Virus record (IMG/VR): IMGVR_UViG_3300032251_000001
Location: 71,789-135,788 of that record
Length of the DNA: 64,000 nt
From: a virus
Reading direction: 5' to 3' (one strand)
Of the stretch, positions 10,181 to 54,518 are shown one piece after another. The translations under genes and the position numbers were made by a program. Below the pieces are notes generated by a model that was not told the DNA's origin, searched no databases, and saw nothing but the letters and a program-made list of their open reading frames with translations. How positions within the stretch are numbered: the stretch's first letter is position 1; every line of letters starts with the position of its first letter.

Positions 10181-10202
10181 ATCTTTATAGGGGGATATCA
10201 AG

Positions 10203-11380: not shown

Positions 11381-11517
11381 AAATAAAATAAGACTCTACA
11401 TGGGTCTTATTTTTTTAATTCGTATTTAGTAGATAAATAGATATATATTATAATATTGAATACATTCGATATAAATTTATTATATTGAAATCTAACATAT
11501 ATACTAGGAGGTATATT

Positions 11518-30308: not shown

Positions 30309-31679
30309 ATGAAATTGAAATTCGTTAGCTTTGACGACATGTATGATGAAAAATGCGTGGTGAACAATCATGAAGGAATAGATTCAAAAACAAAAAAGTT
30401 TAATGCAGATGGAATTTTCTCTGAGAGCATCTTCGGTAAGCTTGACAATGAAAGCGTAGCTTTTACTTGTTCATGTGGGAAGAAGAAGGGTAAATTTTAT
30501 GAAGGCACTTCATGTGAAGAATGTAACAGTGATGTTGTGTTCACAGAACCAATGGTAAATAGAAGAGCATGGATTTTACTAAATGACTTCTATATATTAA
30601 ATCCCAATTTCTATAAATTCTTAACAAAGATTTGTAAGAAAACAACGCTTAATAACATTATAGCGTATCAAGGGAAACTTGATAAAGATGGAGTTATCGT
30701 CGATAGTGAAACTGATGACTGTCCTTATAATAATATAGGATTAGTTGAATTCAGAGAAAGATTTGATGAGATATTAGATTACTTCCATAAAACATCTAAT
30801 AGTAAGATTAAAGATTCAATATATAATCTTATAAAGAAGAACAAAGAGCATGTATTTATTAATAAAGTTCCAGTGTATTCAACTACTCTAAGACCTGCTT
30901 TGATGATGAAAGAGAAATTGATATTTGATGAAGTAAACAATACTTACAACTCGATTATCCTTAACTCAAACATTATAAAGGAAGTAAATCAAATAGAGAG
31001 TGAAGATGGTAAACTTACTATATATCCATTGATGTACAACATTCAACTTCAAGCCAACCAAGTATTTGAAAAGATTGTTGATAACATTAAAGGTAAGAGT
31101 GGTTTCATTAGAAATAATATGATGGGAAGTAGAGTTAACTTCTCAGCAAGAACTGTAATTACACCATTACCTTCTGGTTATGGTATTGATTCTATTGTTG
31201 TTCCATATTTAGCATTTATGGAGTTGTACAAGTTCCAGATACTCAATATACTAAGTCGTGTTAAAGGTATCAGTATTGGGGAAGCTAATACTATATGGAA
31301 TAAAGGTACAACAACATTTAGTCAAGAATTATATGACATAATGAAAGAAATAATTAAAAAGGTAGATTGTAAAGTATTACTTAACAGACCACCTACTATT
31401 TCATATGGTTCTATTCTATGTTTAACAATAGTTGATATTAAGCATGACTATGATGATTTAACTTCAAGTATTCATAATTGTATATTAGATTTACTTGCAG
31501 GTGACTATGATGGTGATGTATTGTCTATTTTCCCATTGATAGATGAGTCATTAAAGAGAACATTCAGTAAGTCATTCAGTCCACGTAACATGCTTATCAG
31601 TAGTGATAACGGTATGTTTAATGGTAGATTGAATATAGATAGAGACCAAGCGTTAGGTATCTATAGTTTTAATTGTTAA
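30309..31679 (+). CDS. rpoC: phage multisubunit RNA polymerase beta-prime, N-terminal/catalytic part
   Basis: GIFSESIFG, Zn finger CSC...CEEC, LRP, KSGFIR, RVNFSARTVI, LNRPP, catalytic AGDYDGD. Confidence 0.92.
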   Translation: MKLKFVSFDDMYDEKCVVNNHEGIDSKTKKFNADGIFSESIFGKLDNESVAFTCSCGKKKGKFYEGTSCEECNSDVVFTEPMVNRRAWILLNDFYILNPNFYKFLTKICKKTTLNNIIAYQGKLDKDGVIVDSETDDCPYNNIGLVEFRERFDEILDYFHKTSNSKIKDSIYNLIKKNKEHVFINKVPVYSTTLRPALMMKEKLIFDEVNNTYNSIILNSNIIKEVNQIESEDGKLTIYPLMYNIQLQANQVFEKIVDNIKGKSGFIRNNMMGSRVNFSARTVITPLPSGYGIDSIVVPYLAFMELYKFQILNILSRVKGISIGEANTIWNKGTTTFSQELYDIMKEIIKKVDCKVLLNRPPTISYGSILCLTIVDIKHDYDDLTSSIHNCILDLLAGDYDGDVLSIFPLIDESLKRTFSKSFSPRNMLISSDNGMFNGRLNIDRDQALGIYSFNC

Positions 31680-35321: not shown

Positions 35322-37118
35322 TTAAACTTCTAATATCTTTGCTTTAACAGTTTTGAATTTAACATCATCCATCTTAATATTAGGTTTAAAGAAATCATTA
35401 AACCAATCAATAAATACTTCCTCTTTAGTTAATTCAACACCAAATCCAGCTACATCTTGTAAGAACTCAGACTTATTAATAGAAGAGCCTGGACAAGTCT
35501 TACTAGAATACTCATTATGGAATACACTCTTAATGTTAAATAATCCATTAAAGTACTTAGTGAATTCAAGCATAGATTCTTTTTGTGGACCACTAAATGT
35601 ATCATTACCTTTATCAAAGTTTGCAATCATTTCAATAGCAAATCCTAGGTAATTTCTACCTTTAATTGATGCAGGGTTACTGTTAAAGTCTCTACCAACA
35701 ATCCACTTACCATCTGGAGCTAATGATAGATGTTGACCTATATCTCTCCATTTAAGAGTATTTACATGGTAGTTCCACATACCTTGCTGTAGTGACTGAT
35801 GGTTAGTACCAGTAAAGTGTTTGTGAGAAGGACTCCAAGTATGATGAACATGTAACTCTCTAGGAGTTCTAGTCCATTTAAATTGTTGACAATACTTAAT
35901 TAATTCAGCAGTTGTCATTACTTTAAATCTTTCATCTTCACTACCAACTAACTTAATATACTTACCACTTGTCCATTTATCTTCACCAATTCTATACCAA
36001 CCATTCTTCTCTTCATAAACTTTAACAACTTCATTTCGGTCTAAACGGTCTACAATAGGACAGTCTTTATAATTTGAACTACTAACAACTTTACCACCAC
36101 GAATATTCAATACACTTGTGCCAGTAACTATACCTTTTTGTGTTTCTTCTTCTACAGGCTTTGGAATTACTTTAACGTAATCTCTAACATATGCCTTATT
36201 TGCAGATATAAATTGATTTTTATCAGTTCTATACCAACCATTAGCTACACCAGTTACAGTAACAATGTCTCCTTTAAAGTAATCTCCAACATCATCATAC
36301 TGGACACCAGAACCTTCTCTAATATTTAATCTTGTAGCAATAATTTGAACTTTCTTGTTAATTTTTTCCATGTGATTATCAACATAGTCAATCTTATATT
36401 CTTTAGCATAAATAACTAAGGCATTAGCAATATTTCTTTCAACTCCACCATTAAGATAGTTAACAACTTTACCATCAACTTCCATTTCAGATGAACCACC
36501 ACCATCAGCGTTAACTGAGTTGTGTGCCTGTAGTTCCATCATAACTTCAGCACTTTCTTCAGCTGTAAGTCCTTTATCATTAGTATTTCTACCTTCAGCA
36601 ACAACTAATAACATAGTGTTATCAAGTCTTTGACCAACTAATGTTCTTGGATGTCTTTCATTAGAATGTGTATGATGTTCAGCACCTTCTAAATTAATTT
36701 CACCATCTTTAGTAAGTCTATAAGATAATGATGCACCCCATTGTGCTTTTCGGTCATACTTAGCTTTGAATTCTGCAGTACTTATATCTTCAATAATAAG
36801 TTTATTATTCATAAAGATAGTTTCCATAAAACCTTTACCAATAGAATCTGGTGTACTGAATGTGAAACCACTATCAGTATAGTCTAATCCTACTGCTGCA
36901 ACCTTTTTTACCCATGCAAAGAAAGATAAGTTTACTGCTGCAACTTTCTTATAACCTCTGTCTTCAAACCATTTGTGTCTAATTTTAGTTAAAGGTTCTC
37001 TTTTCTTTCTATCTCCAGCACAGTTCATTACAATTAAGTCTTTACTAGGCATGAATTCTAAAACATGAATATCTGTACCAAATCTTCTCATAGTACTATA
37101 TTTAACCAACTGCTTCAT
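35322..37118 (-). CDS. modular endolysin: phosphodiester glycosidase (NAGPA/DUF2233) + 2x SH3b + Amidase_2
   Basis: HPRT...EGR...GLT...NADGGGSS; two LNIR...GWYR SH3b repeats; HVHHT...DIGQH...AIE...H...KTCPG; start moved to ATG 37118 (SD aggagg). Confidence 0.85.
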   Translation of the reverse strand: MKQLVKYSTMRRFGTDIHVLEFMPSKDLIVMNCAGDRKKREPLTKIRHKWFEDRGYKKVAAVNLSFFAWVKKVAAVGLDYTDSGFTFSTPDSIGKGFMETIFMNNKLIIEDISTAEFKAKYDRKAQWGASLSYRLTKDGEINLEGAEHHTHSNERHPRTLVGQRLDNTMLLVVAEGRNTNDKGLTAEESAEVMMELQAHNSVNADGGGSSEMEVDGKVVNYLNGGVERNIANALVIYAKEYKIDYVDNHMEKINKKVQIIATRLNIREGSGVQYDDVGDYFKGDIVTVTGVANGWYRTDKNQFISANKAYVRDYVKVIPKPVEEETQKGIVTGTSVLNIRGGKVVSSSNYKDCPIVDRLDRNEVVKVYEEKNGWYRIGEDKWTSGKYIKLVGSEDERFKVMTTAELIKYCQQFKWTRTPRELHVHHTWSPSHKHFTGTNHQSLQQGMWNYHVNTLKWRDIGQHLSLAPDGKWIVGRDFNSNPASIKGRNYLGFAIEMIANFDKGNDTFSGPQKESMLEFTKYFNGLFNIKSVFHNEYSSKTCPGSSINKSEFLQDVAGFGVELTKEEVFIDWFNDFFKPNIKMDDVKFKTVKAKILEV

Positions 37119-37485
37119 CATCGTCCTCCTCTTCTGAATCATAACCATAATCATTATAGTCACGATAATCTTCTTCATTGTTATTAGTTACCTTAACTCG
37201 GTTATCTTCTTTCTTGTTAAGTACTTTGTCATTTCGACTAACAAACTTGTTAACCATTTTAGTTCCAAAGTAACCACCCAATATAACCATAAGTGGATTT
37301 GACATAATTCTTAATGTGTCTACTACTGCATCTTGAATGTTACTTTCAAGAAATAGACCCTTCCATACAATCATACCTGATGCGGCTACAAATGCTATAA
37401 CAAATACCACACTTATAAAATCGGTGATTGATACTCCATCCGCATCATTAAGAAAAGTTCTAATTTTTCGTGCCATGATATGCAC
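37102..37485 (-). CDS. putative holin (two TM helices, charged C-terminal tail)
   Basis: Two TM segments; overlaps the endolysin start. Confidence 0.6.
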   Translation of the reverse strand: MHIMARKIRTFLNDADGVSITDFISVVFVIAFVAASGMIVWKGLFLESNIQDAVVDTLRIMSNPLMVILGGYFGTKMVNKFVSRNDKVLNKKEDNRVKVTNNNEEDYRDYNDYGYDSEEEDDDEAVG

Positions 37486-40315: not shown

Positions 40316-41140
40316 TTAGTATTTAATGTTTTTCTTAAATTTAATACCACTGTGACTATATTTATAGTAATTTAACTTTGAGCTACAATTATTACAAGGG
40401 AAAGCTTTTTTATTATCTATATTTGCGTAGTTTCTAAAACCCACAGCTTTACTAGAATTGAATATATGGTCTAGATTATTATCTTTCACATTACCTAGTA
40501 TAAAAACTTGGTGTAATTGATTATCTGTGTGAATCTGACAACATGGTGACACATTACCATTCAAATCAATACCTATATATTCTATAGGTTTAGTACAGTT
40601 ATTAGAATTTATATCACTATAGTCATCTGTGGATTTATCATTTTTAACTTCAAGTAATTCATTTTTAGTAAAATCTACAATATAAATTATTTGCATATTA
40701 TTTAATTTTCCTTCAATATAAGTATCATAAACTTGTACTATGTCAACACCTAATTCATACAATATATTATAACATTTTTCTCTACCCATGCAATCATAGT
40801 CTTTAATTACAAGTTTATCTAAGTTTAAGTCTTTTAAAGCATCCTTAGATAAATAATCTCCATTAGTAGAAGCTACTAAGGTAGCATTAGGTAATCTATC
40901 TTTAATAATATTTACTTTTCTTTTTAGTTCTTCAGTGTATAATAATACTTCATTATTTCTTGAAAAAGATATCATTTCAGAATATTTAACTTGTTCTAAG
41001 TCCTTAATTATCTTAAGATAAACTTCATCAGACATAACTTCATCAGTATTATATTTATCAAATCTTTTACAACAGAACGAACAACTTCTATTACACTTTC
41101 CATGAATTTCAAGTTCTATCAATTTAACACTATTTAACAT
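40316..41140 (-). CDS. radical SAM protein with SPASM/twitch domain
   Basis: CNRSCSFC, NEVLL; C...IDLNGNVSPCC...GN...CNNC. Confidence 0.88.
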   Translation of the reverse strand: MLNSVKLIELEIHGKCNRSCSFCCKRFDKYNTDEVMSDEVYLKIIKDLEQVKYSEMISFSRNNEVLLYTEELKRKVNIIKDRLPNATLVASTNGDYLSKDALKDLNLDKLVIKDYDCMGREKCYNILYELGVDIVQVYDTYIEGKLNNMQIIYIVDFTKNELLEVKNDKSTDDYSDINSNNCTKPIEYIGIDLNGNVSPCCQIHTDNQLHQVFILGNVKDNNLDHIFNSSKAVGFRNYANIDNKKAFPCNNCSSKLNYYKYSHSGIKFKKNIKY

Positions 41141-41349: not shown

Positions 41350-42744
41350 ATGAAAAAGAGAAATTTATTACTAAACTTAACACTTGTAGTTTTATTAATG
41401 AGCATTTTATGTGTTCCAGCATTTGCATCTGAGGACGAATTGAATGTAGAACTTAATGGAGAACAAATTGAATTTGGTGAAACTGAACCTACAATTATTG
41501 ATGGTAGAACAGTATTACCTGCAAGAACAATCTTAGAAGCTTTAGGATTAGAAATTGGTTGGGATGCTAAAACCAAAACTGTAACTGGCACAAGAAAAGG
41601 ATTAGATATAGTACTTCAAATAAACTCAACTAAAGCTTGGGTTAACAATGTTGCACAAACATTAGACGTACCTGCAACAATTATTGATGGTAGAACTTAT
41701 TTACCAGTAAGATTTATTGCAGAATCAACTGGATGTACTGTTGGTTGGGATGCTGAAACTAAAACAGTTTCTATCACTAGTGAAGAAGCAGGATTCTACA
41801 CTGAAGAAGTAATGATTCAAAATACTAATGAAGGTTTATATTTAAAAGAAGATTTTAAATTTTATGAAAATGATTACACATCAGAAAACCTTTCTAAATT
41901 AATTGAAGCTACACCAGCTAGTGAAGAAGTTACTGAACTTAGAGCTAACAATGATAACAAATATCGTGATGGTTTAAATGTAATGAACTTTAAATACTTT
42001 GACCTTTATTATCCTAAAACTGAAGACGGTCAAGCAGCAGCTGAATCAATTGCTAAACATGCTGATAAAGCTTATATGTTCCTTACTGATATGTTTGATG
42101 GACAACAAGTACATGTTGAAGTTCACTTAATTCGTGAAGAAGATATGGGTGGTATTGATGAAGGTATTGCAAGAAAAGAAAACAAAGTTACTTTCGTATA
42201 TATTAATCCTGAGAAAATGGAAAAATACGAAGAAATGTTAATTCCATCTTTAGTACATGAAATGTTCCACAACTTCTTCTCAATTAACAATAATGTTTGG
42301 AATTTCGAAACAGAATTAAGAACGTTTACTGAAGAAGGTATTGCAAGAATAATTGGTGGTATCTATGTAGATTCTATTGCTAGAGAAACTAATGATTATA
42401 ACACTTACAACAACTTTATGGTAGGTACTTATCACTTTGATGTATCTTCTTTAAGAAAATTAACAAATGAATTAGATTACAATCCAACAGTTGAAGACGC
42501 TACTGATTCTGTTCTTACAAATCAATGGTGGACACCAACTAAAGAAGCTTTAGTTGATAGAAATATGGTTATATTATATTGGGCAAACTTATACAATACT
42601 AAAGGTATTGAAAGCTTTAAAACTATCTTAAACACTATGGGTAGTGATGCTGATAACAATATTAAATTAACAATTGAAAATGCTATCAATGATACATTAG
42701 AAAACTCATATGATGAGTTTGAAGCTTTAATCTTAAATGATTAG
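41350..42744 (+). CDS. secreted protein: signal peptide + copper-amine-oxidase N-terminal (stalk) domain + HExxH metallopeptidase-like domain
   Basis: MKKR...PAFA signal; two IIDGRTxLPxR repeats; VHEMFH...EEGIA. Confidence 0.8.
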   Translation: MKKRNLLLNLTLVVLLMSILCVPAFASEDELNVELNGEQIEFGETEPTIIDGRTVLPARTILEALGLEIGWDAKTKTVTGTRKGLDIVLQINSTKAWVNNVAQTLDVPATIIDGRTYLPVRFIAESTGCTVGWDAETKTVSITSEEAGFYTEEVMIQNTNEGLYLKEDFKFYENDYTSENLSKLIEATPASEEVTELRANNDNKYRDGLNVMNFKYFDLYYPKTEDGQAAAESIAKHADKAYMFLTDMFDGQQVHVEVHLIREEDMGGIDEGIARKENKVTFVYINPEKMEKYEEMLIPSLVHEMFHNFFSINNNVWNFETELRTFTEEGIARIIGGIYVDSIARETNDYNTYNNFMVGTYHFDVSSLRKLTNELDYNPTVEDATDSVLTNQWWTPTKEALVDRNMVILYWANLYNTKGIESFKTILNTMGSDADNNIKLTIENAINDTLENSYDEFEALILND

Positions 42745-42751: not shown

Positions 42752-42792
42752 AAGAGAATAGACTATAATAGTCTATTCTCTTATTTTTTTTT
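42752..42792. terminator. bidirectional terminator
   Basis: aagagaatagacta/tagtctattctctt stem with A and T tracts. Confidence 0.75.
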
Positions 42793-43705
42793 AGTTCTTT
42801 ACACCAATAGCCTCTTCTCTACTTTTTTTGTTTGCATTATAAGATGCATCTGTACCTTTAGTAAAATCTTGGAATTCACCTTCGAAATAAGTAGGTTTAA
42901 ATATCTTCCCACCATCAGTTCCAAAGTATCTGTACTCTTCATCAGTTTTAAGTGCTTCTTCTTTTTTTCTAGTAGAATAAGCTTCAACATCAGTAATAGG
43001 TTCACTGTATTCATTAATTTCAACTCTATTTAAATGACTAAATTCTTCTTCAAGTTGTTTAATAACTTCATAATATCTTTTAATATAATATGGTGTAGAT
43101 GGAGTATCACCTTTTAGAGCTTGTATGGTGAATGTTCTAACTCCGATACTTCTTAAGAACTTAACATTATTATAGAACTTATCAACATCAGTAATAACTA
43201 ATCTAATTACTGCAAATGGGAAGTACTTTAATAAGAATTTAACATTCTTAATAACTATATCATAAGAACCTCTACCATTATGGAATACTCTACAAGCATC
43301 ATGTGCTTCTTGGTCTCCATCTATACTAACATGAATGCTTAAAAAATCATGGAATTTAAATAATTCTTTAACTTTTCTTTCATTAAGAAGTGTTCCATTT
43401 GTAATGGTATTAAACATAATGTTTCTTCCTTTTAAGAAATATTCATTATAAGCATATTCAGTTATAGCATAAAATACTTCGTAATTTAAAAGAGGTTCTC
43501 CTCCAAATAACATTATTCTAGCAGTTACTTCGTTATCAACCATTTCCATTATTTCATCCACTATATTTTTAGCAGTCTCAAAATCTATTTTTTTTCTAGA
43601 TTTACCATCTTCATAGCAATATGTGCAATTAAGATTACAATATTCACACAGATATATCACATGTAGATGGTCATTACATTTTACAAACTCATTACTTTCG
43701 CTCAT
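42791..43705 (-). CDS. radical SAM protein without a SPASM domain
   Basis: CNLNCTYC, LFGGEPLL, TNGTLL, SIDG...HDACR; no C-terminal Cys cluster. Confidence 0.9.
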   Translation of the reverse strand: MSESNEFVKCNDHLHVIYLCEYCNLNCTYCYEDGKSRKKIDFETAKNIVDEIMEMVDNEVTARIMLFGGEPLLNYEVFYAITEYAYNEYFLKGRNIMFNTITNGTLLNERKVKELFKFHDFLSIHVSIDGDQEAHDACRVFHNGRGSYDIVIKNVKFLLKYFPFAVIRLVITDVDKFYNNVKFLRSIGVRTFTIQALKGDTPSTPYYIKRYYEVIKQLEEEFSHLNRVEINEYSEPITDVEAYSTRKKEEALKTDEEYRYFGTDGGKIFKPTYFEGEFQDFTKGTDASYNANKKSREEAIGVKN

Positions 43706-44564
43706 AATTTTCCCCCATATTTGTCCAAACTTTATTAGTTTGAATTATCATAGAATAATACATTTTTAAATCTGCACTAATTCTATCATCATCCAAAGAT
43801 GTTGCTTCTTCATAAACATCAACAATACTTGAATTATTGATATCGTTACCTTTTAATCGTGTCTGTATAGATATTGATTTTTGTTTTTCCATCATTGGGA
43901 ATAATTTTAAAGGTCTTTCTTGATTTAAAATGTATTCACAAATTTGTTTATGATGTTCTATAAATAATTTTACAAATCTATCATCAATATCAGTTTTATT
44001 AACTCCAATGTTTATTAAGTTAAATCCTAGGTTATATAATGATTTAATTCCACTGAACAACGAACCTATATTTAATTTATGAACAGTCATAGTTACTATA
44101 GGTTCAACTTTTAACTCTTTTAAAAATTTTTTAGAGTTCTCAGCAACTATACTGTATGTTCCTTTTCTTGTAGATTTAAAATGTCTACAACTATCATGCA
44201 TTATTTTGTTACCATCTATAGATATTCCTATTTCAAAAACTTTCTTAGAGTTTATAAAATCAACTATATCTTTTGAATATATAGTTCCATTAGTTGTAGC
44301 TATATATCTTGTAATTCTAAAATCAGAATATTTAGTTTCAATGTAGTTACATGCAAACTTAATTCCATCCATATTAAGAAATGTTTCTCCACCAATGAAT
44401 TCAAACTCAATATCATCTTTATTACTTGCATTAGAGAATATAAAATCAATATTCTTTTCAAGTTCAGAATTGGATAAGTTCTTAGAAGACTTATCCAATT
44501 CATAACAATATGAGCAATCAAGATTACATACTTTAGTTATATATAAAGTATATCTTTTTCTCAT
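43692..44564 (-). CDS. radical SAM protein without a SPASM domain
   Basis: CNLDCSYC, FIGGETF, TNGT, SIDG...HDSCR. Confidence 0.9.
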   Translation of the reverse strand: MRKRYTLYITKVCNLDCSYCYELDKSSKNLSNSELEKNIDFIFSNASNKDDIEFEFIGGETFLNMDGIKFACNYIETKYSDFRITRYIATTNGTIYSKDIVDFINSKKVFEIGISIDGNKIMHDSCRHFKSTRKGTYSIVAENSKKFLKELKVEPIVTMTVHKLNIGSLFSGIKSLYNLGFNLINIGVNKTDIDDRFVKLFIEHHKQICEYILNQERPLKLFPMMEKQKSISIQTRLKGNDINNSSIVDVYEEATSLDDDRISADLKMYYSMIIQTNKVWTNMGENYERK

Positions 44565-44566: not shown

Positions 44567-45706
44567 TTAACCTCCATATGATGCAGGGTCTATTGTTTTC
44601 TCCCAGTTAGGATTACCTTTAAGTTTTGCTTCAAGTTCTCTTGCAACTTTATAATTTATCTTATGAAGTTTACAAACATTTGAAATACATTTGAACTTAG
44701 TACCACTATCTTCCCACATTGAAGCTACACATTGACCTAAGCAATTGTAATCTTTAAATGTATCACATGTAGAACAACCATTAAAATTTTTAGCTGAATA
44801 ATTTTGGAAGAAAATACTCCATGAAGATTTAATATATAAACCTTTTTCTAAATCACCCATTTTGAATGGACTTCTATTGTTATAGAATCTTTGACATGGA
44901 TATATATCACCATCAGGTGAAATTCCCCATTGTCTTACTCCAGCACCACAGAATGTTCTAGATTGATAAGTAAAGTCTAATAATGGAATAGCAAATAAGT
45001 CACACCATAAGCCTAAATCTATGTTGTCAGCATACCAATTTGCTAACTCTCTAATAACTTCTTCATACTTAATAACATCTTCATCAGTCCATATAGCTTC
45101 TCTAACTAAAGCCATATCAATTTTAGTTACACCTATACTTAATAGATACTTTACATTTTTCATAACAAAATGTAAATTAGATGGAGCTATCATTGACTTT
45201 GTAGATATATGGGTTCTATCAACACCATATACTTCACAATATTTACGAATACCTTCATTTACTTCTTCAAAACTTCCAGAACCATCATGATGTATTCTAC
45301 CAAAATCATGTGCTTCCTTACAACCATCCATTGAGAAGTTATAATGAATACAACCTAAAGGTCTTGTAAAGTTAAGTATATCATAATCAAGTAATACTGA
45401 ATTAGTAAAAATAATTGCTCTCACTCTTCTAGGATACTTTTTTTCTAACTCAACTACTGCTTCTATCATTAATTTTAAATCACCATTCTTCCAAAGAAGT
45501 AATGGTTCTCCACCAAATAAATCTATATTAACATTAAAATTATCAAGTATTTTAAGTTCAGCTTGTTTAATAAGTAATCTAAACGTTTCAATACTCATCA
45601 TTTTAGGGTTATCTTTAACATAACAATATTTACATGCAAGATTACATTGTTCAGTTAATATTGGTGTAAATCTAAATATTTGTCTCTTATTGCCATTGTC
45701 ATTCAT
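44567..45706 (-). CDS. radical SAM/SPASM peptide maturase (anSME/ranthipeptide-type)
   Basis: CNLACKYC, LFGGEPLL; CGAG...PDGDIYPCQRF...CSTC...CLGQC...C. Confidence 0.92.
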   Translation of the reverse strand: MNDNGNKRQIFRFTPILTEQCNLACKYCYVKDNPKMMSIETFRLLIKQAELKILDNFNVNIDLFGGEPLLLWKNGDLKLMIEAVVELEKKYPRRVRAIIFTNSVLLDYDILNFTRPLGCIHYNFSMDGCKEAHDFGRIHHDGSGSFEEVNEGIRKYCEVYGVDRTHISTKSMIAPSNLHFVMKNVKYLLSIGVTKIDMALVREAIWTDEDVIKYEEVIRELANWYADNIDLGLWCDLFAIPLLDFTYQSRTFCGAGVRQWGISPDGDIYPCQRFYNNRSPFKMGDLEKGLYIKSSWSIFFQNYSAKNFNGCSTCDTFKDYNCLGQCVASMWEDSGTKFKCISNVCKLHKINYKVARELEAKLKGNPNWEKTIDPASYGG

Positions 45707-45724: not shown

Positions 45725-46786
45725 TTAATCTTTATCGTCTTCTCTTAAATAGAGAATAATATCTTCATGAGTTCTACATATTGCATCATTGTTAACATAT
45801 TCATTGTTCTTCATAAATGCTGAGAAATCACCTTTACATTGATATCTATGTCCACAATCTGCACATTTTATATTAGAATAGAATTCTAATCCCTTATCGA
45901 AATCTACACCTGTATGTATATTTCCTATTGGGTCATTGTTAAAGAACTTACTTCTAGTTGAAATGTGTACATCTCCACCTTTAAAGTAAGCAAATTGATG
46001 CAATCTGCCAGTTCTTTGTATCTTATCTACAGCCCAACCTTTAGTTGGTCTTTCAATAATTATACCTAAATTTCTCATTATATCAATTGAATTTCTAATC
46101 TTACTAGTGTAGTCTTTACTGTCAACTCTTGAAAGAACATTATAGTCTTGATATTCGAATAATGGTATAATTTTATTAGCAATACCTAAATCTGTGAAGT
46201 GCTTAAGTTCTTTAATGATACCTGTGTAATGCTCTTCAGGTTTCAAAGTTATTAAATATCCAAATACTTTAGGATAATTTTCACTCATCTTTATATATTT
46301 TTTAACATTTTCAAAACGTTGTTCGAATAATGGAGATTCCATCTTTGGTAAAGAAAGATTTAATTTGAAATTGTAATTGTTAAATAAATCTTCAGTATTT
46401 TCAAGCATATTTACTGCATTTGAAATCATTAATGAACTATAATATTTAAATCTTCTTTTCACTTCTTTCATAATATACATTACTAAGTCTATATTCATAC
46501 TAGGTTCTCCACCTGTAAGTATTAAATATGGTCCATAACCTTTATATTCTTTTTCTAAAAAATCAAAAAGAGCATCAACATCTTTTTCTTCCATGTCATC
46601 AGTCATCATATTAGTTTTATCTTTGTGCCAACAAAAACTGCATGTCTCATTACATCTGTCAGTTAATTGCATTATAACAGGTATTGGTGTCACAGAATTA
46701 TAGGTAGGGCAAGATGCCCTATCTATATTACATTCCTGTGAGTATCCACCGAGACTGCATGTATAACATTTACCTTCGTTATTCAT
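45725..46786 (-). CDS. radical SAM protein with an N-terminal Cys cluster and partial SPASM
   Basis: CYTC...C...C at the N-terminus; CNETCSFC, LTGGEP; CADC...C...C at the C-terminus. Confidence 0.85.
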   Translation of the reverse strand: MNNEGKCYTCSLGGYSQECNIDRASCPTYNSVTPIPVIMQLTDRCNETCSFCWHKDKTNMMTDDMEEKDVDALFDFLEKEYKGYGPYLILTGGEPSMNIDLVMYIMKEVKRRFKYYSSLMISNAVNMLENTEDLFNNYNFKLNLSLPKMESPLFEQRFENVKKYIKMSENYPKVFGYLITLKPEEHYTGIIKELKHFTDLGIANKIIPLFEYQDYNVLSRVDSKDYTSKIRNSIDIMRNLGIIIERPTKGWAVDKIQRTGRLHQFAYFKGGDVHISTRSKFFNNDPIGNIHTGVDFDKGLEFYSNIKCADCGHRYQCKGDFSAFMKNNEYVNNDAICRTHEDIILYLREDDKD

Positions 46787-46813
46787 ATAGTACCCAACTT
46801 TCTTTCGTTATTC

Positions 46814-47392
46814 TTACCATTCGTCTGCGAAACCTTCACATGTAGGAACTCCATCATTATTATGACAATCACAGTAACATCTTGCATCACAAGCACATCT
46901 TGAATCACAAGTACAAGCGTAGTTACAGTCACAAGTACAAACATTATGACAATCACAAGAACATCTAGCATCACAAGTACAAGCATAATCACAGTTACAA
47001 GAACATCTACCATTACAAGAACATCTAGCATCACAAGTACAAGCATAATCACAGTTACAAGTACAAGCATAATTACAGTTACATGAACATCTTGCATTAC
47101 AAGTACAATAATTAGTAATTTCAGTTGATAAAGATTTAAGTAGTTCAAGAATACTCACTCTTATAGGTTGACCTACAACAAAAGACGTTAATGAATTAAC
47201 ATCAGCTTCAGCACCAGACTCATCATTAGCTTCAATTACTCTATCTTTAAGATATTGAATGTCTGAAGCCTTTATTACTCCTGTAAATGTTTTTGATACA
47301 GTTCCTAATCCCCACTTCGTTCTAGCAGCATTAATCATAGATAAAGTTGATGCTGCATCAGACGATACTATTATAGTGTTTATCGAGGGCAT
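46814..47392 (-). CDS. Cys-repeat precursor-like protein 2 (95-aa N-domain + 97-aa core, 31 Cys)
   Basis: CxC(N/D)xR and CxCxCxYA repeats; C-terminus GFADEW; paralog of 47428..48036. Confidence 0.88.
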   Translation of the reverse strand: MPSINTIIVSSDAASTLSMINAARTKWGLGTVSKTFTGVIKASDIQYLKDRVIEANDESGAEADVNSLTSFVVGQPIRVSILELLKSLSTEITNYCTCNARCSCNCNYACTCNCDYACTCDARCSCNGRCSCNCDYACTCDARCSCDCHNVCTCDCNYACTCDSRCACDARCYCDCHNNDGVPTCEGFADEW

Positions 47393-47427
47393 TTCTTATA
47401 CCTACCTTCCTTATTTACATATGTTTT

Positions 47428-48036
47428 TTACCATTCATCTGCAAAACCACCACATCCAACATTACCATCATTATTATGACAGTCACAGTAACATCTAGAA
47501 TTACAAGCACATCTACCATTACAAGTACATGAATAGTTACAGTTACAAGTACAAGCATAGTTACAGTCACATGAACATCTTGCATTACAAGTACATGAAT
47601 AGTTACAGTTACAAGTACATGAATAGTTACAGTTACAAGTACAAGCATAGTTACAGTCACATGAACATCTACCATTACAAGTACAAGCATAGTTACAGTT
47701 ACAAGTACATGAATAATTACAATCACATGAACATCTTGCATTACAAGCACAATGATTAGTAATTGCAGTTGCTAAAGCTTTAAGTAATTCAATAATACTT
47801 GCTCTTATAGGTTGACCTACATCAAATCCTGTCACAGTCTCCATGTTTTGACCAGCTCCAGCTTGAGTGTTAGCTTCACTTACTCTATCTTTAAGATATT
47901 GAATGTCTGCTGATTGGATAGTTCCTGTAAATGTTTTTGATACAGTTCCTAATCCCCACTTCGTTCTAGCAGCATTAATCATAGATAAGGCTGATGATGA
48001 GTCAGATGATATTATTATAGCGTTTACTACTGGCAT
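47428..48036 (-). CDS. Cys-repeat precursor-like protein 1 (95-aa N-domain + 107-aa core, 35 Cys)
   Basis: Five CxCNxR and seven CxC(D/N)CNY(A/S) units; C-terminus GFADEW; AACA-N6-TA upstream at 48176-48187. Confidence 0.88.
   Translation of the reverse strand: MPVVNAIIISSDSSSALSMINAARTKWGLGTVSKTFTGTIQSADIQYLKDRVSEANTQAGAGQNMETVTGFDVGQPIRASIIELLKALATAITNHCACNARCSCDCNYSCTCNCNYACTCNGRCSCDCNYACTCNCNYSCTCNCNYSCTCNARCSCDCNYACTCNCNYSCTCNGRCACNSRCYCDCHNNDGNVGCGGFADEW
47521..47634. repeat. exact 24-nt coding repeats within precursor 1
   Basis: acaagtacatgaatagttacagtt at 47521, 47587 and 47611. Confidence 0.85.
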
Positions 48037-48232: not shown

Positions 48233-48547
48233 TTAGTATATATCAAATACTAATGTTAACAATTCCCTATCTCCTTTGTCATCATATTGTAATAGGAGAA
48301 AATTTGTATATGTTTTTGTACGTTTTCCAAAAGTTATAGTTAAACTTAGTATTTCTTCTTCACGTTTACACATAAGTTTATTTAATATTATTAAACCATT
48401 ATCTTTTATACTTGCATTTGTAATGTGCAATCTTTTGTATAAATGTTCACGTACAACTTCAAAGGATAGTTTATTATCAGTATCTTCATAAATTTGATGT
48501 ATCACACCTGATTTATATTCTAAATCATATTTAACCAAATATATCAC
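48233..48547 (-). CDS. small hypothetical protein in the rSAM cluster
   Basis: 104 aa between the SPASM gene block and the precursors. Confidence 0.65.
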   Translation of the reverse strand: MIYLVKYDLEYKSGVIHQIYEDTDNKLSFEVVREHLYKRLHITNASIKDNGLIILNKLMCKREEEILSLTITFGKRTKTYTNFLLLQYDDKGDRELLTLVFDIY

Positions 48548-48598: not shown

Positions 48599-48931
48599 TT
48601 ATGACACTTTACAAGTTATTTTTTCAATTGTTTGCCCTGTATCATTGTCTGTTCCTAAATAATATTGCATATCATAAATAGTTCCTTCTTTAATGTTTTT
48701 CCCATCAAGTAAGAATTTAAACTTAACAGTTTCAGAAGATAATGTTAATTTAGTATCTATTAAATCTTCAATATTTAATTCAAATTCAGGATTTCTGATT
48801 TCAAGAATTTTAACTATTTCATCAGCTCCTTCTGGATGAGTGTGTATATATGTTGATTTGATAGCTGTATCTTTCTCATTAAATTCTATCTCTTTAGTTA
48901 CTTCATCATAACTAAATATAATTCTCATCAT
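48599..48931 (-). CDS. small acidic hypothetical protein in the rSAM cluster
   Basis: 110 aa directly after the 48934 rSAM. Confidence 0.7.
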   Translation of the reverse strand: MMRIIFSYDEVTKEIEFNEKDTAIKSTYIHTHPEGADEIVKILEIRNPEFELNIEDLIDTKLTLSSETVKFKFLLDGKNIKEGTIYDMQYYLGTDNDTGQTIEKITCKVS

Positions 48932-48933: not shown

Positions 48934-50340
48934 TTACACCTCTTCTTCAGATTCTTTATTAATAGATAATGCTATTAATTCAAGGATACCGAATATAGAA
49001 TCAATCTTATTTTCTAATACATCAATTCGGTTTACATGTTCTCCAATACTTTCTAAAGAAGTACCTAATGCTTCCATAACTGGTGTGATAGTTTCTAGAG
49101 TATATTTAGCAATTTCTTTAAAATCAATTTCAACTTTAGCATTGTCTTTATCTCCACAACTACAACCATCAACTCCACAAGTTCCAGATTTAGAATTATT
49201 AATAAGACCAGCTTCAGCCATTCTATCTCTTAAACTATAACGAATTTCTCTTTCAACTCTAGACAACTTACAGTATGCAGGGAAACCTACAAACATATTG
49301 TCATTAGCAGCATAATTTGTAGCGATACATGTATAACATTCAGTGTTATTACATTCTGCACAGTTCATATCGCCAAACATATTAGTTTTATCATATTGAA
49401 GGAATAAGTCACGTTTACCATCAACTTCTCCACCTTCTAAAACATTACCATAATCAAATTCATCAGAATCTATAAAGAAAAATTGATGACAAGGATAGAG
49501 TCTACCATCTGATGCAATAGAACAATAGTTCTTTCCAGCACCACAAGGAGCATCAGGTTTTGTTCCCTTACAATTAGCTAAAGAAGCATATCCTGTATAG
49601 TATCTTGATGTATCATTTTCAACACAATCATCATAAACTTTATCAGCAATAAGAGTAAGTTGTTCTCTGAATATTTCCTCATCACTATCTTCCCATTCAT
49701 CTTCATGTAATGGCATAAACCATATAGAATCTATACCTAGATTTCTCATATGCATGTAACTTTCAAATAATCTTGGAAGTGCTGGTTTATTTACAACACC
49801 ATGAATACTTAATGAGAATGGTGTTAAAGGAATTTCTTGCTCTTTAAATAAGTCTAAATACTTAACTAATGTAGCTTCAATTAAAGCTGATGAACCCTTA
49901 CCATCTGCAGTAATTCTAAATTGGTCATTAACTTCTGGAACTCCATCATATGAAATTTGAATTTGGATATCCTTAAGAGTATTCCACCATTTAATTAAAA
50001 ATAGTCTGTAATCTTCAGTGAATACTGTACCATTGGTAATAATCATACATCCAAATCTTAAATTTTCTTCCTCACATCTTTTAACAGCATAGTCAAAAGT
50101 ATGTTCCATTGTTGGAACGTTTAGTGCTGGCTCTCCACCAAAGAAAGTAATGTTAATACTGTCTTGTTTAGCAATCTTAGCATTTTCAATAAGATACTCA
50201 ACACCAGCTTCAGCTACTTCAAAGCTCATATGTTTGTTAGGATGTTTACCACCTTCGAAACAATATGTACATCTTAAATTACACGCTTCAGTTAGGATAA
50301 ATGAAGCGTTATTTGGGTGGTCTTGCAATTTCTTAGTCAT
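48934..50340 (-). CDS. radical SAM/SPASM peptide maturase with an extra C-terminal Cys motif and coiled coil
   Basis: CNLRCTYC, FFGGEP; CGAG...DGRLYPCHQF...CAEC...CYTC...C; TCGVDGCSC. Confidence 0.92.
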   Translation of the reverse strand: MTKKLQDHPNNASFILTEACNLRCTYCFEGGKHPNKHMSFEVAEAGVEYLIENAKIAKQDSINITFFGGEPALNVPTMEHTFDYAVKRCEEENLRFGCMIITNGTVFTEDYRLFLIKWWNTLKDIQIQISYDGVPEVNDQFRITADGKGSSALIEATLVKYLDLFKEQEIPLTPFSLSIHGVVNKPALPRLFESYMHMRNLGIDSIWFMPLHEDEWEDSDEEIFREQLTLIADKVYDDCVENDTSRYYTGYASLANCKGTKPDAPCGAGKNYCSIASDGRLYPCHQFFFIDSDEFDYGNVLEGGEVDGKRDLFLQYDKTNMFGDMNCAECNNTECYTCIATNYAANDNMFVGFPAYCKLSRVEREIRYSLRDRMAEAGLINNSKSGTCGVDGCSCGDKDNAKVEIDFKEIAKYTLETITPVMEALGTSLESIGEHVNRIDVLENKIDSIFGILELIALSINKESEEEV

Positions 50341-50395: not shown

Positions 50396-50704
50396 TTACT
50401 TAGCTTCTACATCTTCAATTACTGGGTTAGTTAATACTTGAATTAGTTCAAGAATTCCACTAGCATAGTTAATACCTTTAGTTTTTAAAACTAAATCAAA
50501 ACATGAACTGAGAAGTTTAGACTGTTCATCATTTAATTCATAAATACTAAACTTACCATCTTCTAGAATCACATCAGGTTTACTAAAGTGAACTAAAAGA
50601 TTAAAGATTTGATGAATGTTATTTAGACCAGTTTCTCTTACAACTACGTCTAAACATCTCTTGATATTTTCTACTTGTGGCTTAGAAAGTTTAAATTTTG
50701 ACAT
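50396..50704 (-). CDS. hypothetical helical protein with an internal duplication
   Basis: Lx(K/D)xQxxxxxxCxDxVxxxxG occurs twice. Confidence 0.7.
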   Translation of the reverse strand: MSKFKLSKPQVENIKRCLDVVVRETGLNNIHQIFNLLVHFSKPDVILEDGKFSIYELNDEQSKLLSSCFDLVLKTKGINYASGILELIQVLTNPVIEDVEAK

Positions 50705-50823
50705 TGTATTTCTCCTTTATAATATAAGTTATACCTTAATTTTATAATGATTAGTTCCTGTTTATTTTAAGAGATAAAAAATATACGTTTAGACAAAGTC
50801 ATCTAAACGTACACTTAATTATA

Positions 50824-52683
50824 TTATAAATTTTTAATAAACATTTTAATTCTTTTAATTCCAGCACATCCATCATAATTTTCAACAGACATTCCAACAA
50901 TTGAACCTTTTGGGGTATCTTCAAACTCACCAAGAGCTCTTCCAACACCAGGAATATCTGAACTTACAATATATTGACCTCTCTTAACAGCACCAACTAC
51001 TTTAACTTTAACTCTTCCAGCCATGCCAATAGGAATAAAGTTATCCTTATCTTTATCATCACCATTTCCACCAATACATTGTGCAAATGTATCTGAATGA
51101 ACACCAACTACTTCTTCAGATTTTTCAGTAGTTACTTTTATATACTTTTCCTTATCAGAATTGACATCAATTATAACAATGTCACCAGGTTCAGTTTCAT
51201 TACCTTTTTCAAAGTACTCAGCATAATCATTCCATACTGCATTAAATACTTGAGATGCATAAAGAACACTATGGATATTTAATCTACTTGCAGTGTTTGT
51301 AGGTGCAACAAGTCCAGTATCACATGATATTCCTTGAATTTTTTCAGTATCAACAGCCTTAGAAGTGGCATCTAATTTACCAGAAAGTGACGTTTGAGTT
51401 GCAGGATTTAATGTAGTTGTAAGTGTTACATCTTGAGAACCATCAAAAGCAATTGTCCCTGTAACAGCTCCAATAACATTTATATCTCTAACAGTTTCTA
51501 ACTTTACTGCTTTAGCTGCTGAAGCTGTTAAAGGTAAATACTCATGAGTGTGACCATCTAATGCAAAGTCTGAAGCGTGTAAGCCATCAAGTTTATCTGC
51601 ATCGAATAATGATAAATGACCTCCATTACCTTCATGGAATAATTTAAATCCATTAACTCCATTATGGAAAACAGGTGCATTTAAATTTCTTGAGATTTCC
51701 ATTCCATACCAAGTACCTGTACTATCTAGAGGTTGCCCATCAGCAACATAAGCTTCAGACATTTTTAGTAAAATATTACCATTCTCTGAATCTAAAACTA
51801 ATGCTGCAGGGTAGTTAGATGTACCATTTGAAGTTACTCCATCCACAGTTCCAGCACCAAGTAACAATGCATCTGTAAGTAGACCTTCTCCATACGTATC
51901 TATTTGAGTTTTAGTTACTACAAAGTTAGTGTTATCACCTTCACCAAAGGTTATACCTTTATCACCTGTAAACTTAATATCAGTAGTTAATTCACCACCA
52001 ACACTAACTTTTTTAGATAATTCAGTCATTATAGTTGCAGCAAAGTCTGGGTCATTGTTTAGTGCATTACCAATTTCAACTAGAGTGTTTAATGCATCTG
52101 GAGCTGCACCAATTAATTCTTGCATTCTTGCATCTGATTCAACTTTAGTATAAACTAATGAAGAATCTACTTTATTATTCCAATTAGATTTTTCACCATC
52201 AGTTACAAATCTACTTGTAGAATTTTGAACTATAATACTAGCTGGATGAGTGCTAGGATGATTATAGTTATTAGCAAGACTTTCAATATTATCTAATTTA
52301 TTAAGTAATTCGTCAGTTATAAATCTATTTGTAGAATTTTGAACTATAATACTAGCTGGATGAGTACTAGGATGCATATAATTAGTAGCACCTTCAGATA
52401 TGCCATCCAATTTAATCTTATCATCAGCAGTAAGCAGTCCATCACCTAAATCAGATACTAATCCTATAAGATTTATTAAATCTTCTTTAGTAACCACTCC
52501 ATCAATCTTACCGTTTATTGTTAAATTACTTATTCCAAGCGAATCTAACTGACCTGAAGTTAACAATCCAATCTTATCTAGAATTACTTGAGAAGTAACT
52601 CCTTCTAAATTTTTAAGCTCAACATCTGTAGTTAAAACGGTATTTATGCTAAGGTGATTTAGTTGTTCAATACCTATAGCCAT
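50824..52683 (-). CDS. tail fibre/spike protein with C-terminal IMC autoproteolytic (Peptidase_G2/S74-like) chaperone domain
   Basis: HPSTHPASII repeats, GAAPDALNTL.EI..LNNDPDFAAT, DADKLDGLHAS, NDYAEYF...GRVKVKV. Confidence 0.8.
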   Translation of the reverse strand: MAIGIEQLNHLSINTVLTTDVELKNLEGVTSQVILDKIGLLTSGQLDSLGISNLTINGKIDGVVTKEDLINLIGLVSDLGDGLLTADDKIKLDGISEGATNYMHPSTHPASIIVQNSTNRFITDELLNKLDNIESLANNYNHPSTHPASIIVQNSTSRFVTDGEKSNWNNKVDSSLVYTKVESDARMQELIGAAPDALNTLVEIGNALNNDPDFAATIMTELSKKVSVGGELTTDIKFTGDKGITFGEGDNTNFVVTKTQIDTYGEGLLTDALLLGAGTVDGVTSNGTSNYPAALVLDSENGNILLKMSEAYVADGQPLDSTGTWYGMEISRNLNAPVFHNGVNGFKLFHEGNGGHLSLFDADKLDGLHASDFALDGHTHEYLPLTASAAKAVKLETVRDINVIGAVTGTIAFDGSQDVTLTTTLNPATQTSLSGKLDATSKAVDTEKIQGISCDTGLVAPTNTASRLNIHSVLYASQVFNAVWNDYAEYFEKGNETEPGDIVIIDVNSDKEKYIKVTTEKSEEVVGVHSDTFAQCIGGNGDDKDKDNFIPIGMAGRVKVKVVGAVKRGQYIVSSDIPGVGRALGEFEDTPKGSIVGMSVENYDGCAGIKRIKMFIKNL

Positions 52684-52770
52684 TACTTATTCCTCCTTTT
52701 CTAAATCAATTTTATAAATTTGTTCAAAAATAATGGAAAAGAGTCATTAGACTCTTTCCCATATATTAAT

Positions 52771-53007
52771 TTAATAGTTTCTCACTTGAATGATTCTAAC
52801 AATAGTATCATCATTAGTGTTAACAACTGCATTTCTACGAACATCAAATTTTTCATTAGATTTCATAGGATTGCATCTTAAAACATAGTGTTGGTGACCA
52901 CTAGGAAGTTCAGTAGTGTAACCTAAAGCTTTTTTAGCTTCAACATTTACATTTCTTACGTTCTCAATAGCCTTTCCATTCCACATTCTCTTATAATTTA
53001 CTGCCAT
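52771..53007 (-). CDS. small hypothetical protein between the fibre genes
   Basis: Start moved to ATG 53007 (SD aggag). Confidence 0.7.
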   Translation of the reverse strand: MAVNYKRMWNGKAIENVRNVNVEAKKALGYTTELPSGHQHYVLRCNPMKSNEKFDVRRNAVVNTNDDTIVRIIQVRNY

Positions 53008-53031
53008 AAGATAAATCTCCTTTCGCAAATA

Positions 53032-54447
53032 TTAAGCATTCATGATAAGCATTTTAATACGCTTAACGCCTTCAGAACCATCATAATTTTCCATAGCTTT
53101 ACCAATTACAGTACCAGCAACATATTCCTTAGAATCAATAGCTTTACCAACACCAGCAATATCTGAACTTACAATAAGTTGATTACGTTTAACAGCACCA
53201 ACTACTTTAACTTTAACTCTTCCAGCCATGCCAATAGGAGCATATTTCTTTTCTTGTTCTTCTGGATTTCCAGCATTCTCAAGGTCTCCACCAATACATT
53301 GGGCATAATCATCAGAATAAACACCAACTACAGCGTTTGATAAAGCTTCAGTAGATTTAGTATAAACTTCTTTATCTGAATCTACACGAACAACTATATC
53401 GCCAGCTTCCAATTCACCTTCTTTTAAGAAGTACTCAGCATAATCATTATAAACTGCATTAAATACTTGAGATGCAGTAATAGTTCCACCAAATACACCA
53501 TTACCTGTAATTGCAGCATTGCCTGATGCATTAAGAGTAACATGACCATGACTAACTTTAGCAAATTCTGAAGCATGTAAGCCATCAACAGTATCTGCAT
53601 CAGTTGCTTGGGCATTTAAACCTAAATACAATGTAGCATGAGTATGAGTATCTCTAGCAAAATCTGAAGCTTGTAAGCCATCAACAGTATCTGCATCTAA
53701 TCCAGAATCAGCTCCATCAACAGTCTTTACTTTAGCTAAAATATTAGCAGATGTAAAATCTGTAACATTAACTTTCTTAGCAAGTTCTGTAGTCATAGTT
53801 GCAGCAAAGTCTGGGTCATTATTTAATGATGCTCCAATTTCAATAAGAGTATTTAAAGCGTCAGGTGCTGCACCAACTAATTCTTGGAATCTAAGGTCAG
53901 TTTCTTCCTTAGTATAAGCATTGACTGCATCCATTTTGTCATTCCATGTAGCTTTTTCAATATCTGAAACGAATCTACGATTACTATCTTCATCTATCAT
54001 GTTTGCAGAATGAGTTGAAGGATGTAAATATTTGTTTGCTTCTGGAGAAATTCCTGCTAATTTTAATTCTTCAGCTAAACTTGTAAACTTCTTTTCATCA
54101 GTTTCAGTAATAATGCTTGCAGGGTGAACAATAGGATGAACGTAATTATTTGCATTTAAAGCTATAGCATCTAATTTAATTTTATCCTGTGCATCCATTA
54201 AGCCATTTGTAGTGTTTGAAGCATTTACTAATACAGATTGTAAATCTACGTTAGTTACTTCTCCATCAAATTTACCATTAATAGATAAATTTTCTAATCC
54301 TAAAGCAATCTTTTCAGCATTATCTAAGGTTGCTAATTTTGCAAGAATAGTAGCTTTTTCGACACCTATAAGACCTTTAAGTTGCTCGTCAGTTGCTAAC
54401 AAGCCATCTAGTGCTAATTGATTAAGTTGCTCTATACCAATTGCCAT
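53032..54447 (-). CDS. tail fibre protein paralog with IMC chaperone domain
   Basis: MAIGIEQLN start at 54447; same motifs as 50824..52683 but lacks the central beta region. Confidence 0.8.
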   Translation of the reverse strand: MAIGIEQLNQLALDGLLATDEQLKGLIGVEKATILAKLATLDNAEKIALGLENLSINGKFDGEVTNVDLQSVLVNASNTTNGLMDAQDKIKLDAIALNANNYVHPIVHPASIITETDEKKFTSLAEELKLAGISPEANKYLHPSTHSANMIDEDSNRRFVSDIEKATWNDKMDAVNAYTKEETDLRFQELVGAAPDALNTLIEIGASLNNDPDFAATMTTELAKKVNVTDFTSANILAKVKTVDGADSGLDADTVDGLQASDFARDTHTHATLYLGLNAQATDADTVDGLHASEFAKVSHGHVTLNASGNAAITGNGVFGGTITASQVFNAVYNDYAEYFLKEGELEAGDIVVRVDSDKEVYTKSTEALSNAVVGVYSDDYAQCIGGDLENAGNPEEQEKKYAPIGMAGRVKVKVVGAVKRNQLIVSSDIAGVGKAIDSKEYVAGTVIGKAMENYDGSEGVKRIKMLIMNA

Positions 54448-54518
54448 TCTTTTCACCTTCCTTTTCAATTTAAAAGAAAAGACCTCAAATAGTATGAAGT
54501 CCTTTCTTAATTTTTTGT

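Follow-up and report, generated by a model that had tools for sequence, protein, structure and literature searches.

Two cysteine-repeat proteins encoded with five radical-SAM enzymes next to phage tail-fibre genes: candidate thioether-cross-linked fibre components

Introduction

To our knowledge, radical-SAM thioether chemistry has been described for small bacterial peptides and for one enzyme subunit, QhpC. QhpD installs several Cys-Asp/Glu thioethers in QhpC, which is a lasting structural part of a protein complex. The SCIFF/ScfB system and the CXXX-repeat, CcpM and CefB systems, which were defined by computation, combine Cys-rich substrates with SPASM maturases. Their substrates are short bacterial peptides, and the SCIFF precursor has 45 residues with six Cys. 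On the structural side, the fibres of phage T4 contain HxH iron sites, and other phage fibres are chaperoned by a Peptidase_S74 domain. We know of no S74 fibre with a Cys-repeat shaft or with dedicated radical-SAM enzymes. A first-pass annotation of the DNA studied here had invoked NxxcB and PapB as precedents, and both are real: NxxcB, for which Asn, Asp, Gln and Ala are acceptable, makes a Cys-Asn beta-thioether (PMC9389541), and the thioethers made by PapB join Cys to Asp/Glu, with an acceptor that must lie C-terminal to the Cys and at any spacing (PMC12373016).

Here we describe a phage operon that encodes two Cys-repeat proteins, A and B, together with five radical-SAM enzymes. It resembles the PapB/freyrasin system in having SPASM enzymes, repeated Cys...acid/amide motifs within one substrate and potential acceptors C-terminal to the Cys. 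It differs in having five enzymes instead of one, and presumed substrates of about 200 residues with a folded N-terminal domain, 31–35 Cys, mostly Asn at the presumed acceptor position and a location in a tail-fibre module. NxxC also occurs at many unit junctions of A and B. NxxcA, a short streptococcal peptide under quorum control, has it only once, and the phage family does not conserve this spacing. QhpC receives 3 links, compared with the dozens that A and B could carry, and is a bacterial, periplasmic protein. The repeat grammar of A and B also differs from that of the short bacterial substrates, being CxCxCxYx instead of the CXXX of TIGR04115 substrates. Many homologs of A share the S74 motif and His-containing repeats with S74-chaperoned fibres and with the HxH sites of T4 gp37/gp12, but A and B have neither.

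Gene organization of the locus

The window, the whole 64,000-nucleotide stretch of DNA that was analysed, is part of the 135.8-kb IMG/VR virus record IMGVR_UViG_3300032251_000001 (positions 71,789 to 135,788), for which the estimated completeness is 53%. Its GC content is about 29%. It carries genes for a split multisubunit RNA-polymerase beta, an HNH endonuclease, tail fibres and a virion structural protein, and therefore comes from a jumbo-type phage. A protein near the operon contains a Cu_amine_oxidN1 domain, which is common among secreted proteins of Bacillota, so the host may belong to this phylum. In a collection of cultured phages, neither the window region nor protein A had a match in nucleotide and protein searches.

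The operon extends over about 8 kb of the minus strand, with terminator-like hairpins at both bounds. In the order of transcription the features are as follows.

50824..54468, minus strand: two paralogous tail-fibre genes (619 and 478 aa), directly upstream of the operon
50779..50816, minus strand: terminator-like hairpin between tail-fibre gene and operon
50396..50704, minus strand: first operon gene, 102 aa, just downstream of the hairpin
48934..50340, minus strand: r468, radical SAM/SPASM, CNLRCTYC at residue 20, 13 C-terminal Cys
48599..48931, minus strand: small protein of 110 aa, between r468 and A
48233..48547, minus strand: small protein of 104 aa, between r468 and A
47428..48036, minus strand: Cys-repeat protein A, 202 aa, 35 Cys, five hexads and seven octads, ending in a GFADEW tail
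46814..47392, minus strand: Cys-repeat protein B, 192 aa, 31 Cys, six hexads, five octads and tail
45725..46786, minus strand: r353, radical SAM, N-terminal Cys-rich extension, CNETCSFC at residue 45
44567..45706, minus strand: r379, radical SAM/SPASM, from an orthogroup found across almost all related loci
43692..44564, minus strand: r290, short radical SAM without auxiliary-cluster Cys, PapB match over the core only
42791..43705, minus strand: r304, short radical SAM without auxiliary-cluster Cys
42752..42782, no strand assigned: hairpin flanked on either side by T-runs, at the operon's downstream end and convergent with the gene at 41350-42744

In nine other loci, too, homologs of the tail-fibre genes lie upstream of a Cys-repeat/radical-SAM module. 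The three small operon proteins show no family match and no detected homologs in the related loci, and their Atlas matches are uninformative.

Cysteine-repeat proteins A and B

A and B are paralogs with an identity of about 70%. Both start with an N-terminal part of 95 residues that is free of Cys, and their first Cys is residue 96. The AlphaFold2 model of A, built from an 81-row alignment, shows a three-helix bundle at residues 10–95 with pLDDT >90. The Cys-rich repeat of A occupies residues 96–202, and it is modelled with pLDDT of about 40 and no confident fold. Fold searches with this model returned generic helical bundles only (Z ≤ 7 in the PDB, one weak viral match). Both proteins would thus consist of a folded three-helix N-domain followed by a presumed rod of about 100 residues, built of C-x-C-[N/D]-(C-N-Y-x / x-R) units. 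About 33% of the residues in the C-terminal part of each protein are Cys, in CxC and CxCxC patterns. The hexad units of A and B retain the Cys and Asn/Asp residues and lack Tyr. Neither protein contains a Peptidase_S74 domain, an SDxRLK cleavage motif or the Hint and discoidin ends seen in some homologs. No Pfam metallothionein family matches A or B, and their Cys content and CxC spacing are compatible with a metallothionein.

The parsing of the two repeats proposed in the first-pass annotation was reproduced exactly. A recount of A gives five CxCNxR and seven CxC[DN]CNY[AS] units, followed by a tail, and finds 13 NxxC motifs (NARC, NYSC, NYAC, NGRC, NSRC and NVGC). B contains 10 [ND]xxC motifs, with HNVC and VPTC as exceptions, and the ending CYCDCHNNDG..C.GFADEW is common to both proteins. 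The description of the pair as an Asn version and an Asp-rich version agrees with the composition: A has 19 N and 6 D, B has 10 N and 11 D.

The repeat DNA is a young tandem array, which in A has a period of 90 nt, 2.3 copies and 95% identity. A near-identical phage carries an allele of 172 aa, exactly 30 residues shorter. Since the tandem duplication is recent, the unit junctions within A and B are copies and not independent events. The ORFs at 46783-47148 and 47415-47750, which are out of frame, arise as a by-product of the repeat.

The five radical-SAM enzymes

All five enzymes pass the cut-off of PF04055 (37.7–79.3 bits, cut-off 29.5), with the CxxxCxxC motif located at residues 13–45. For the SPASM domain PF13186 (cut-off 21.5), r379 scores 22.2 bits and lies above the cut-off; r468 scores 17.4 bits, carries CxxCx4CxxC and has a helical C-terminal extension. 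A partial C-terminal Cys motif, CxxCx5C...C, is found in r353, whose ortholog occurs in L032 only. No C-terminal Cys motif is present in r290 and r304, and because the auxiliary-cluster Cys are absent, these two may not be thioether synthases. Orthologs of r304 occur in L005, L032 and L034.

The best NCBIfam match of all five enzymes is PapB, NF047865, with 183 bits for r468 and 160, 144, 120 and 50 bits for the others, compared with a cut-off of 340. The CXXX-repeat, SCIFF, QhpD, CcpM and CefB maturases follow. By the curated cut-offs, none of the five belongs to any characterised maturase family: the best score is 146 bits for the CXXX-repeat maturase TIGR04115 (cut-off 350) and 134 bits for ScfB, TIGR03974 (cut-off 425), and QhpD, TIGR03906, matches with E-values of 1e-22 to 1e-36 and all scores under the cut-off of 453. 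Among named proteins, r379 is closest to SCIFF thioether maturases, with an identity of about 28%. NxxcB is not among the matches listed for the five enzymes.

A quick tree of 67 radical-SAM enzymes from related loci, in which deep branches are unresolved, places the five in at least four clades. The r379 orthogroup spans the whole family (SH-aLRT 98), and the r468 clade and the short-enzyme clades lie within the sub-family of the window.

Register of the repeat units

The first-pass annotation had proposed a ladder of thioether rings in the N/D-x-x-C register, a motif it placed at almost every unit junction. We compared the repeat cores with 20000 composition-preserving shuffles. The enrichment of [ND]xxC is modest. 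Shuffled cores of A give 8.0 ± 2.1 motifs, and 305 of the 20000 come up to the observed 13; those of B give 6.6 ± 1.9, and 1200 of the 20000 come up to the observed 10. For the reverse motif, Cxx[ND], not one of the 20000 shuffles attained the 21 copies of A or the 17 of B.

The homologs define the unit more clearly. Their repeat consensus is C-T-C-[NDQ]-C-[ND]-Y-(x). Position 4 is N/D/Q in 97% of units and position 6 is N/D in 97%; these are the residue types that PapB, QhpD and NxxcB use as acceptors. Thr, which fills position 2 in 78% of units, and Tyr, which fills position 7 in 95%, are rated as conserved as Asn. At 785 unit junctions in 122 homologs, 439 units are octads, 277 (35%) are heptads and 16 are hexads, the latter all from the lineage of the window phage. 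Close relatives of this clade also carry CSCDCNR heptads. Conservation of N/D three residues before the next Cys had been set beforehand as the test of the junction register, and it is largely lacking: N/D is at -3 in 429 of the 785 junctions and at -2 in 286. Octads place Asn at -3 (NxxC), and Asn falls at -2 in many junctions because heptad units end in N-x-C. Looking from the Asn/Asp side, 99% of the 1385 Asn/Asp residues in the repeat regions of the 122 homologs have a Cys at -3 and 98% have one at -1, and only 31% have one at +3. Across these homologs, the family-wide invariant is C-x-x-[N/D], which holds in hexads, heptads and octads alike. The N/D-x-x-C junction register is barely above shuffles, is copied by tandem duplication in A and B and is not conserved among the homologs; it is not supported here. 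The conserved Asn-x-x-Cys cross-link site of the NxxC RaS-RiPPs is accordingly not a feature of this family. Because the invariant is a Cys at -3, in the PapB orientation, a Cxx[N/D] ring register appears more likely than NxxC. Two further registers were considered. Judging from the unit consensus, neither the anSME motif C-x-P/A-x-R nor a three-residue cyclophane motif (aromatic-x-N) would accommodate both heptads and octads.

A and B could be radical-SAM substrates for some other chemistry, such as a sactionine link to an alpha-carbon, a SCIFF-type Cys-Thr gamma-thioether, a Cys-Tyr link, epimerisation or formylglycine made from Cys by an anSME-like enzyme, and the different enzymes might install several of these. 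The spread of the five enzymes over several clades, the two members without auxiliary cluster and the significant sub-threshold matches to SCIFF, anSME and sactipeptide families are consistent with this, as is the conservation of positions 2 and 7. None of these options is favoured over an Asn/Asp acceptor, however, and the hexads of A and B hold Cys and Asn/Asp yet drop Tyr. We consider a different chemistry in place of Asn/Asp thioethers unlikely, though it is the likeliest of the alternatives. Considering the family resemblance of the enzymes and the conserved neighbourhood, the most likely products are thioethers between Cys sulfur and the Asn/Asp beta-carbon.

Distribution, architecture and gene pairing of the family

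Among 5.8 billion proteins searched, 198 relatives were found, which have in common the three conserved helices of the N-domain and the Cys repeat. When the N-domain alone was compared with 1.84 billion representatives, every match also carried Cys repeats. The C-terminal parts are quite variable. Many homologs end right after SDxRLKxxIxY, which makes up the first strand of the intramolecular chaperone Peptidase_S74; some continue into a full S74 domain, some into discoidin and one into Hint. N-terminal CxxH/HxH-like repeats are present in many homologs. When the cultured-phage collection was searched with an S74-fused homolog, the S74 domain was the sole matching part.

Among 185,579 bacterial and archaeal genomes the family is all but missing. 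Just one match came up, in an Erysipelotrichaceae MAG, on a phage-like contig with the same gene arrangement. A scan of prokaryote genome contigs with the S74 motif alone gave nothing that could be confirmed.

Gene pairing was surveyed in 25 IMG/VR loci, three homolog-derived contigs, three loci reached through r379 homologs and the MAG contig. In about 20 of 23 non-redundant loci, the Cys-repeat gene has two to eight radical-SAM genes as neighbours or elsewhere on its contig. The typical order is an r379-type gene, a small ORF, a short radical-SAM gene, a SPASM radical-SAM gene and the Cys-repeat gene. Three fragmentary records (13–33% complete) contain a Cys-repeat gene and no radical-SAM gene. 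The operon and this conserved pairing make it very likely that A and B are substrates of the co-encoded radical-SAM maturases. Of the thioether ladder proposed in the first-pass annotation, this substrate role is supported, with five radical-SAM genes in the operon and the pairing conserved, and the N/D-x-x-C register is not. The open-access papers and preprints searched contain no description of Cys-repeat phage proteins paired with radical-SAM maturases, and the pairing in uncultured phages appears to be undescribed so far. A cyanophage paper that names a radical-SAM 'maturase' is unrelated.

Relatives in Campylobacter group II phages

Two of the surveyed IMG/VR loci are Campylobacter group II phages. 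In CP220, gp140 (equivalent to gene 3-9 of IBB_35) has 534 aa and contains seven CTC[DN]CNY heptads, followed by spaced CxC[NDQ] motifs. The helix ahead of the heptads resembles that of A, and a radical-SAM gene of the r468 type lies 2 kb downstream. The likeness of gp140 / gene 3-9 to A is mainly in the repeat and this helix; the Campylobacter protein differs from A in its larger, different N-terminal part and its long C-terminal region of spaced CxC motifs. Gene 3-9 of IBB_35, with a mass of 60,318 Da, is among 38 virion proteins detected by MS/MS in purified particles, with 2.6% coverage (PMC3322345 Table S2). The mass computed for the homolog corresponding to gene 3-9 is 60,317 Da. This distant relative in virions suggests that A and B may also be incorporated into the particle. 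CP220 and CPt10 contain 11 and 12 radical-SAM genes, an abundance that was termed highly unusual and was tentatively attributed to host metabolism (PMC2853527).

Fibre component or released peptide

The first-pass annotation had called the Cys-rich parts of A and B precursor cores. This is doubtful, given the folded N-terminal bundle, the lack of a recognisable protease or exporter, the fibre-type architectures of the homologs and the synteny with tail-fibre genes. In a classical RiPP pathway, the 95-residue leader would recruit the maturases and be cut off, and a free poly-thioether ranthipeptide or sactipeptide would act on competitors or the host at lysis. Several features of the locus agree with such a pathway: PapB/SCIFF-like maturases adjoin A and B, the two paralogous 'precursors' are in tandem as in many RiPP clusters, and the N-domain always accompanies the Cys repeats. 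Long folded leaders are also familiar from the Nif11 and NHLP classes. However, the operon encodes no protease, exporter/transporter or RRE/PqqD-type protein detectable with Pfam or NCBIfam at E ≤ 0.01, and the enzymes and the three small proteins show no match to PF05402 or any other such family at this level. The only nearby HExxH protein, a secreted one that was considered as leader protease, is encoded on the opposite strand (41350-42744) and is not conserved in related loci. Moreover, homologs with fibre-type C-terminal domains reside in tail-fibre modules, a distant relative is virion-associated and the family is missing from bacterial genomes. A released peptide is therefore improbable, and the pairing probably marks a chemically cross-linked virion protein rather than a small secreted one. 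A metal- or Fe-S-binding or disulfide-only protein, with CxCxC faces that hold metal or form disulfides along a (trimeric) fibre, in analogy to the HxH iron sites of T4 fibres, and the radical-SAM target elsewhere, would fit the metallothionein-like Cys content, the CxxH/HxH-like repeats of many homologs and the three fragmentary records, but it is quite improbable, since radical-SAM genes of the maturase clades that stay adjacent across very divergent phages would hardly do so unless enzyme and substrate were related, strict Asn/Asp/Gln and Tyr between the Cys are not a metallothionein feature and no metallothionein family matches.

Proposed maturation and role

The reading we prefer, to which we give about an even chance, is that A and B are proteins of the tail-fibre module with a Cys-repeat rod cross-linked by the co-encoded radical-SAM enzymes. 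The co-transcribed enzymes would act on the rod during infection. The SPASM-type enzymes r468 and r379 are the most likely to abstract hydrogen from the beta-carbon of Asn or Asp. This carbon would then be joined to a Cys sulfur held on an auxiliary Fe-S cluster, as in PapB, QhpD and NxxcB. The rings would run from C(i) to N/D(i+3), that is from C1 to N4 and from C3 to N6 in the PapB orientation, giving many small thioether rings per chain. The product could be a rigid, heavily cross-linked element of a fibre or whisker. A broader proposal is more tentative, and we hold it to be possible rather than probable: the family may form a widespread, undescribed class of virion fibre, in which the shaft is a radical-SAM thioether ladder of C-T-C-N-C-N-Y units made by about three conserved maturases.

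What is new here is the proposed thioether maturation, by multiple dedicated radical-SAM enzymes, of structural repeat proteins of a phage. The chemistry appears to be wired into a tail-fibre module, and its targets are 200–500 residues long with dozens of sites. If this is true, a structural protein of the virion would for the first time be known to be built by radical chemistry, with covalent side-chain ladders, not folding or disulfides, building a component of the virus particle. The enzymes would be compact maturases for highly repetitive substrates, of interest for the stapling of peptides and proteins. The long-unexplained wealth of radical-SAM genes would also be accounted for in the Campylobacter group II phages CP220 and CPt10 (PMC2853527) and in many jumbo phages. 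The idea is directly testable in the Campylobacter phages, which are cultured and in which the relevant protein has already been found in the virion (PMC3322345).

The proposed rings leave one Cys per octad or heptad unpaired, and they leave three enzymes over, r353, r290 and r304, two of which have no auxiliary clusters. Added or different chemistry is therefore likely, and the leftover Cys and these three enzymes may take part in further links or in a different modification of the rod.

Alternative C-terminal and N-terminal segments in the homologs

The C-termini of the Cys-repeat family vary beyond the intact Peptidase_S74 chaperone domain. The related phage locus L004 contains a tandem pair of Cys-repeat genes (10001-11808), both stopping right after SDKNLKKDI(R/V)FI, which is the opening strand of the Peptidase_S74 chaperone domain. 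The remainder of the domain lies on a separate 102-aa ORF, 9 nt downstream. The arrangement points either to an "intramolecular" chaperone that is split and may act in trans, or to a site of read-through. In locus L032, the Cys-repeat protein (2390-3781) carries a C-terminal Hint (intein/hedgehog-type) fusion beginning CIAPGT, immediately past the Cys repeats. Hint is a predicted second type of self-cleaving C-terminus in this family.

At the other end, homologs including P0040, P0011, P0020 and P0006 show C-x-x-H / GGCHSH repeat arrays N-terminal to the helical domain, and these arrays may form a second modified segment. Loci encoding such homologs (L003, L004 and L031) have additional radical-SAM genes, up to 8, together with a methyltransferase and genes resembling glycosyltransferases.

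Annotation of the repeat genes

A heptad-repeat protein is also found in Campylobacter phages:

L035 9001-10605, CP220 gp140 (CP21 counterpart CP21_105)

Existing annotation marks these heptad repeats only at the DNA level, under the name "Repetitive region x.1-x.6". The CP21 and vB_CjeM_WX1 annotations call the gene a "putative N-acetylneuraminate pyruvate lyase", a label without support from the sequence.

In the window, long open frames overlap the paralogous Cys-repeat genes A and B in other frames:

46783-47148 and 47415-47750, minus strand
46946-47086 and 47529-47759, plus strand

Their translations are low-complexity (V/L/T or Y/K/S/H), and all four were rejected as genes, being by-products of the TGT/TGC-rich repeat.

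Other genes of the window

40316-41140, minus strand, radical SAM/SPASM gene of 274 aa, the sixth, lying just beyond the operon
41350-42744, plus strand, secreted-looking protein with an N-terminal hydrophobic signal, Cu_amine_oxidN1 and a C-terminal HEMFH (HExxH)
35322-37178, minus strand, 618-aa protein with amidase/endolysin-type matches
50824-52683 and 53032-54468, minus strand, two tail-fibre genes
27410-28630 and 30309-31679, plus strand, split multisubunit RNA polymerase beta-subunit genes
24921-26234, plus strand, HNH homing endonuclease

The sixth radical-SAM gene matches the tungsten-cofactor oxidoreductase maturase family best, at 45.6 bits and thus far under the cut-off, and not PapB; no Cys-rich ORF adjoins it. 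The HExxH protein gene is convergent with the radical-SAM operon. Its Cu_amine_oxidN1 match has E = 3.7e-35. The protein is not conserved across the related loci, and it may be a clue that the host belongs to the Bacillota. The 618-aa product is probably the lysin or a virion-associated peptidoglycan hydrolase. The tail-fibre genes are paralogs (phmmer E = 7e-117), and the one at 50824-52683 weakly matches the Peptidase_G2 autoproteolytic domain (24.4 bits versus a cut-off of 25). Split RNA polymerase beta genes with an HNH homing endonuclease are typical for jumbo phages that bring their own RNA polymerase.
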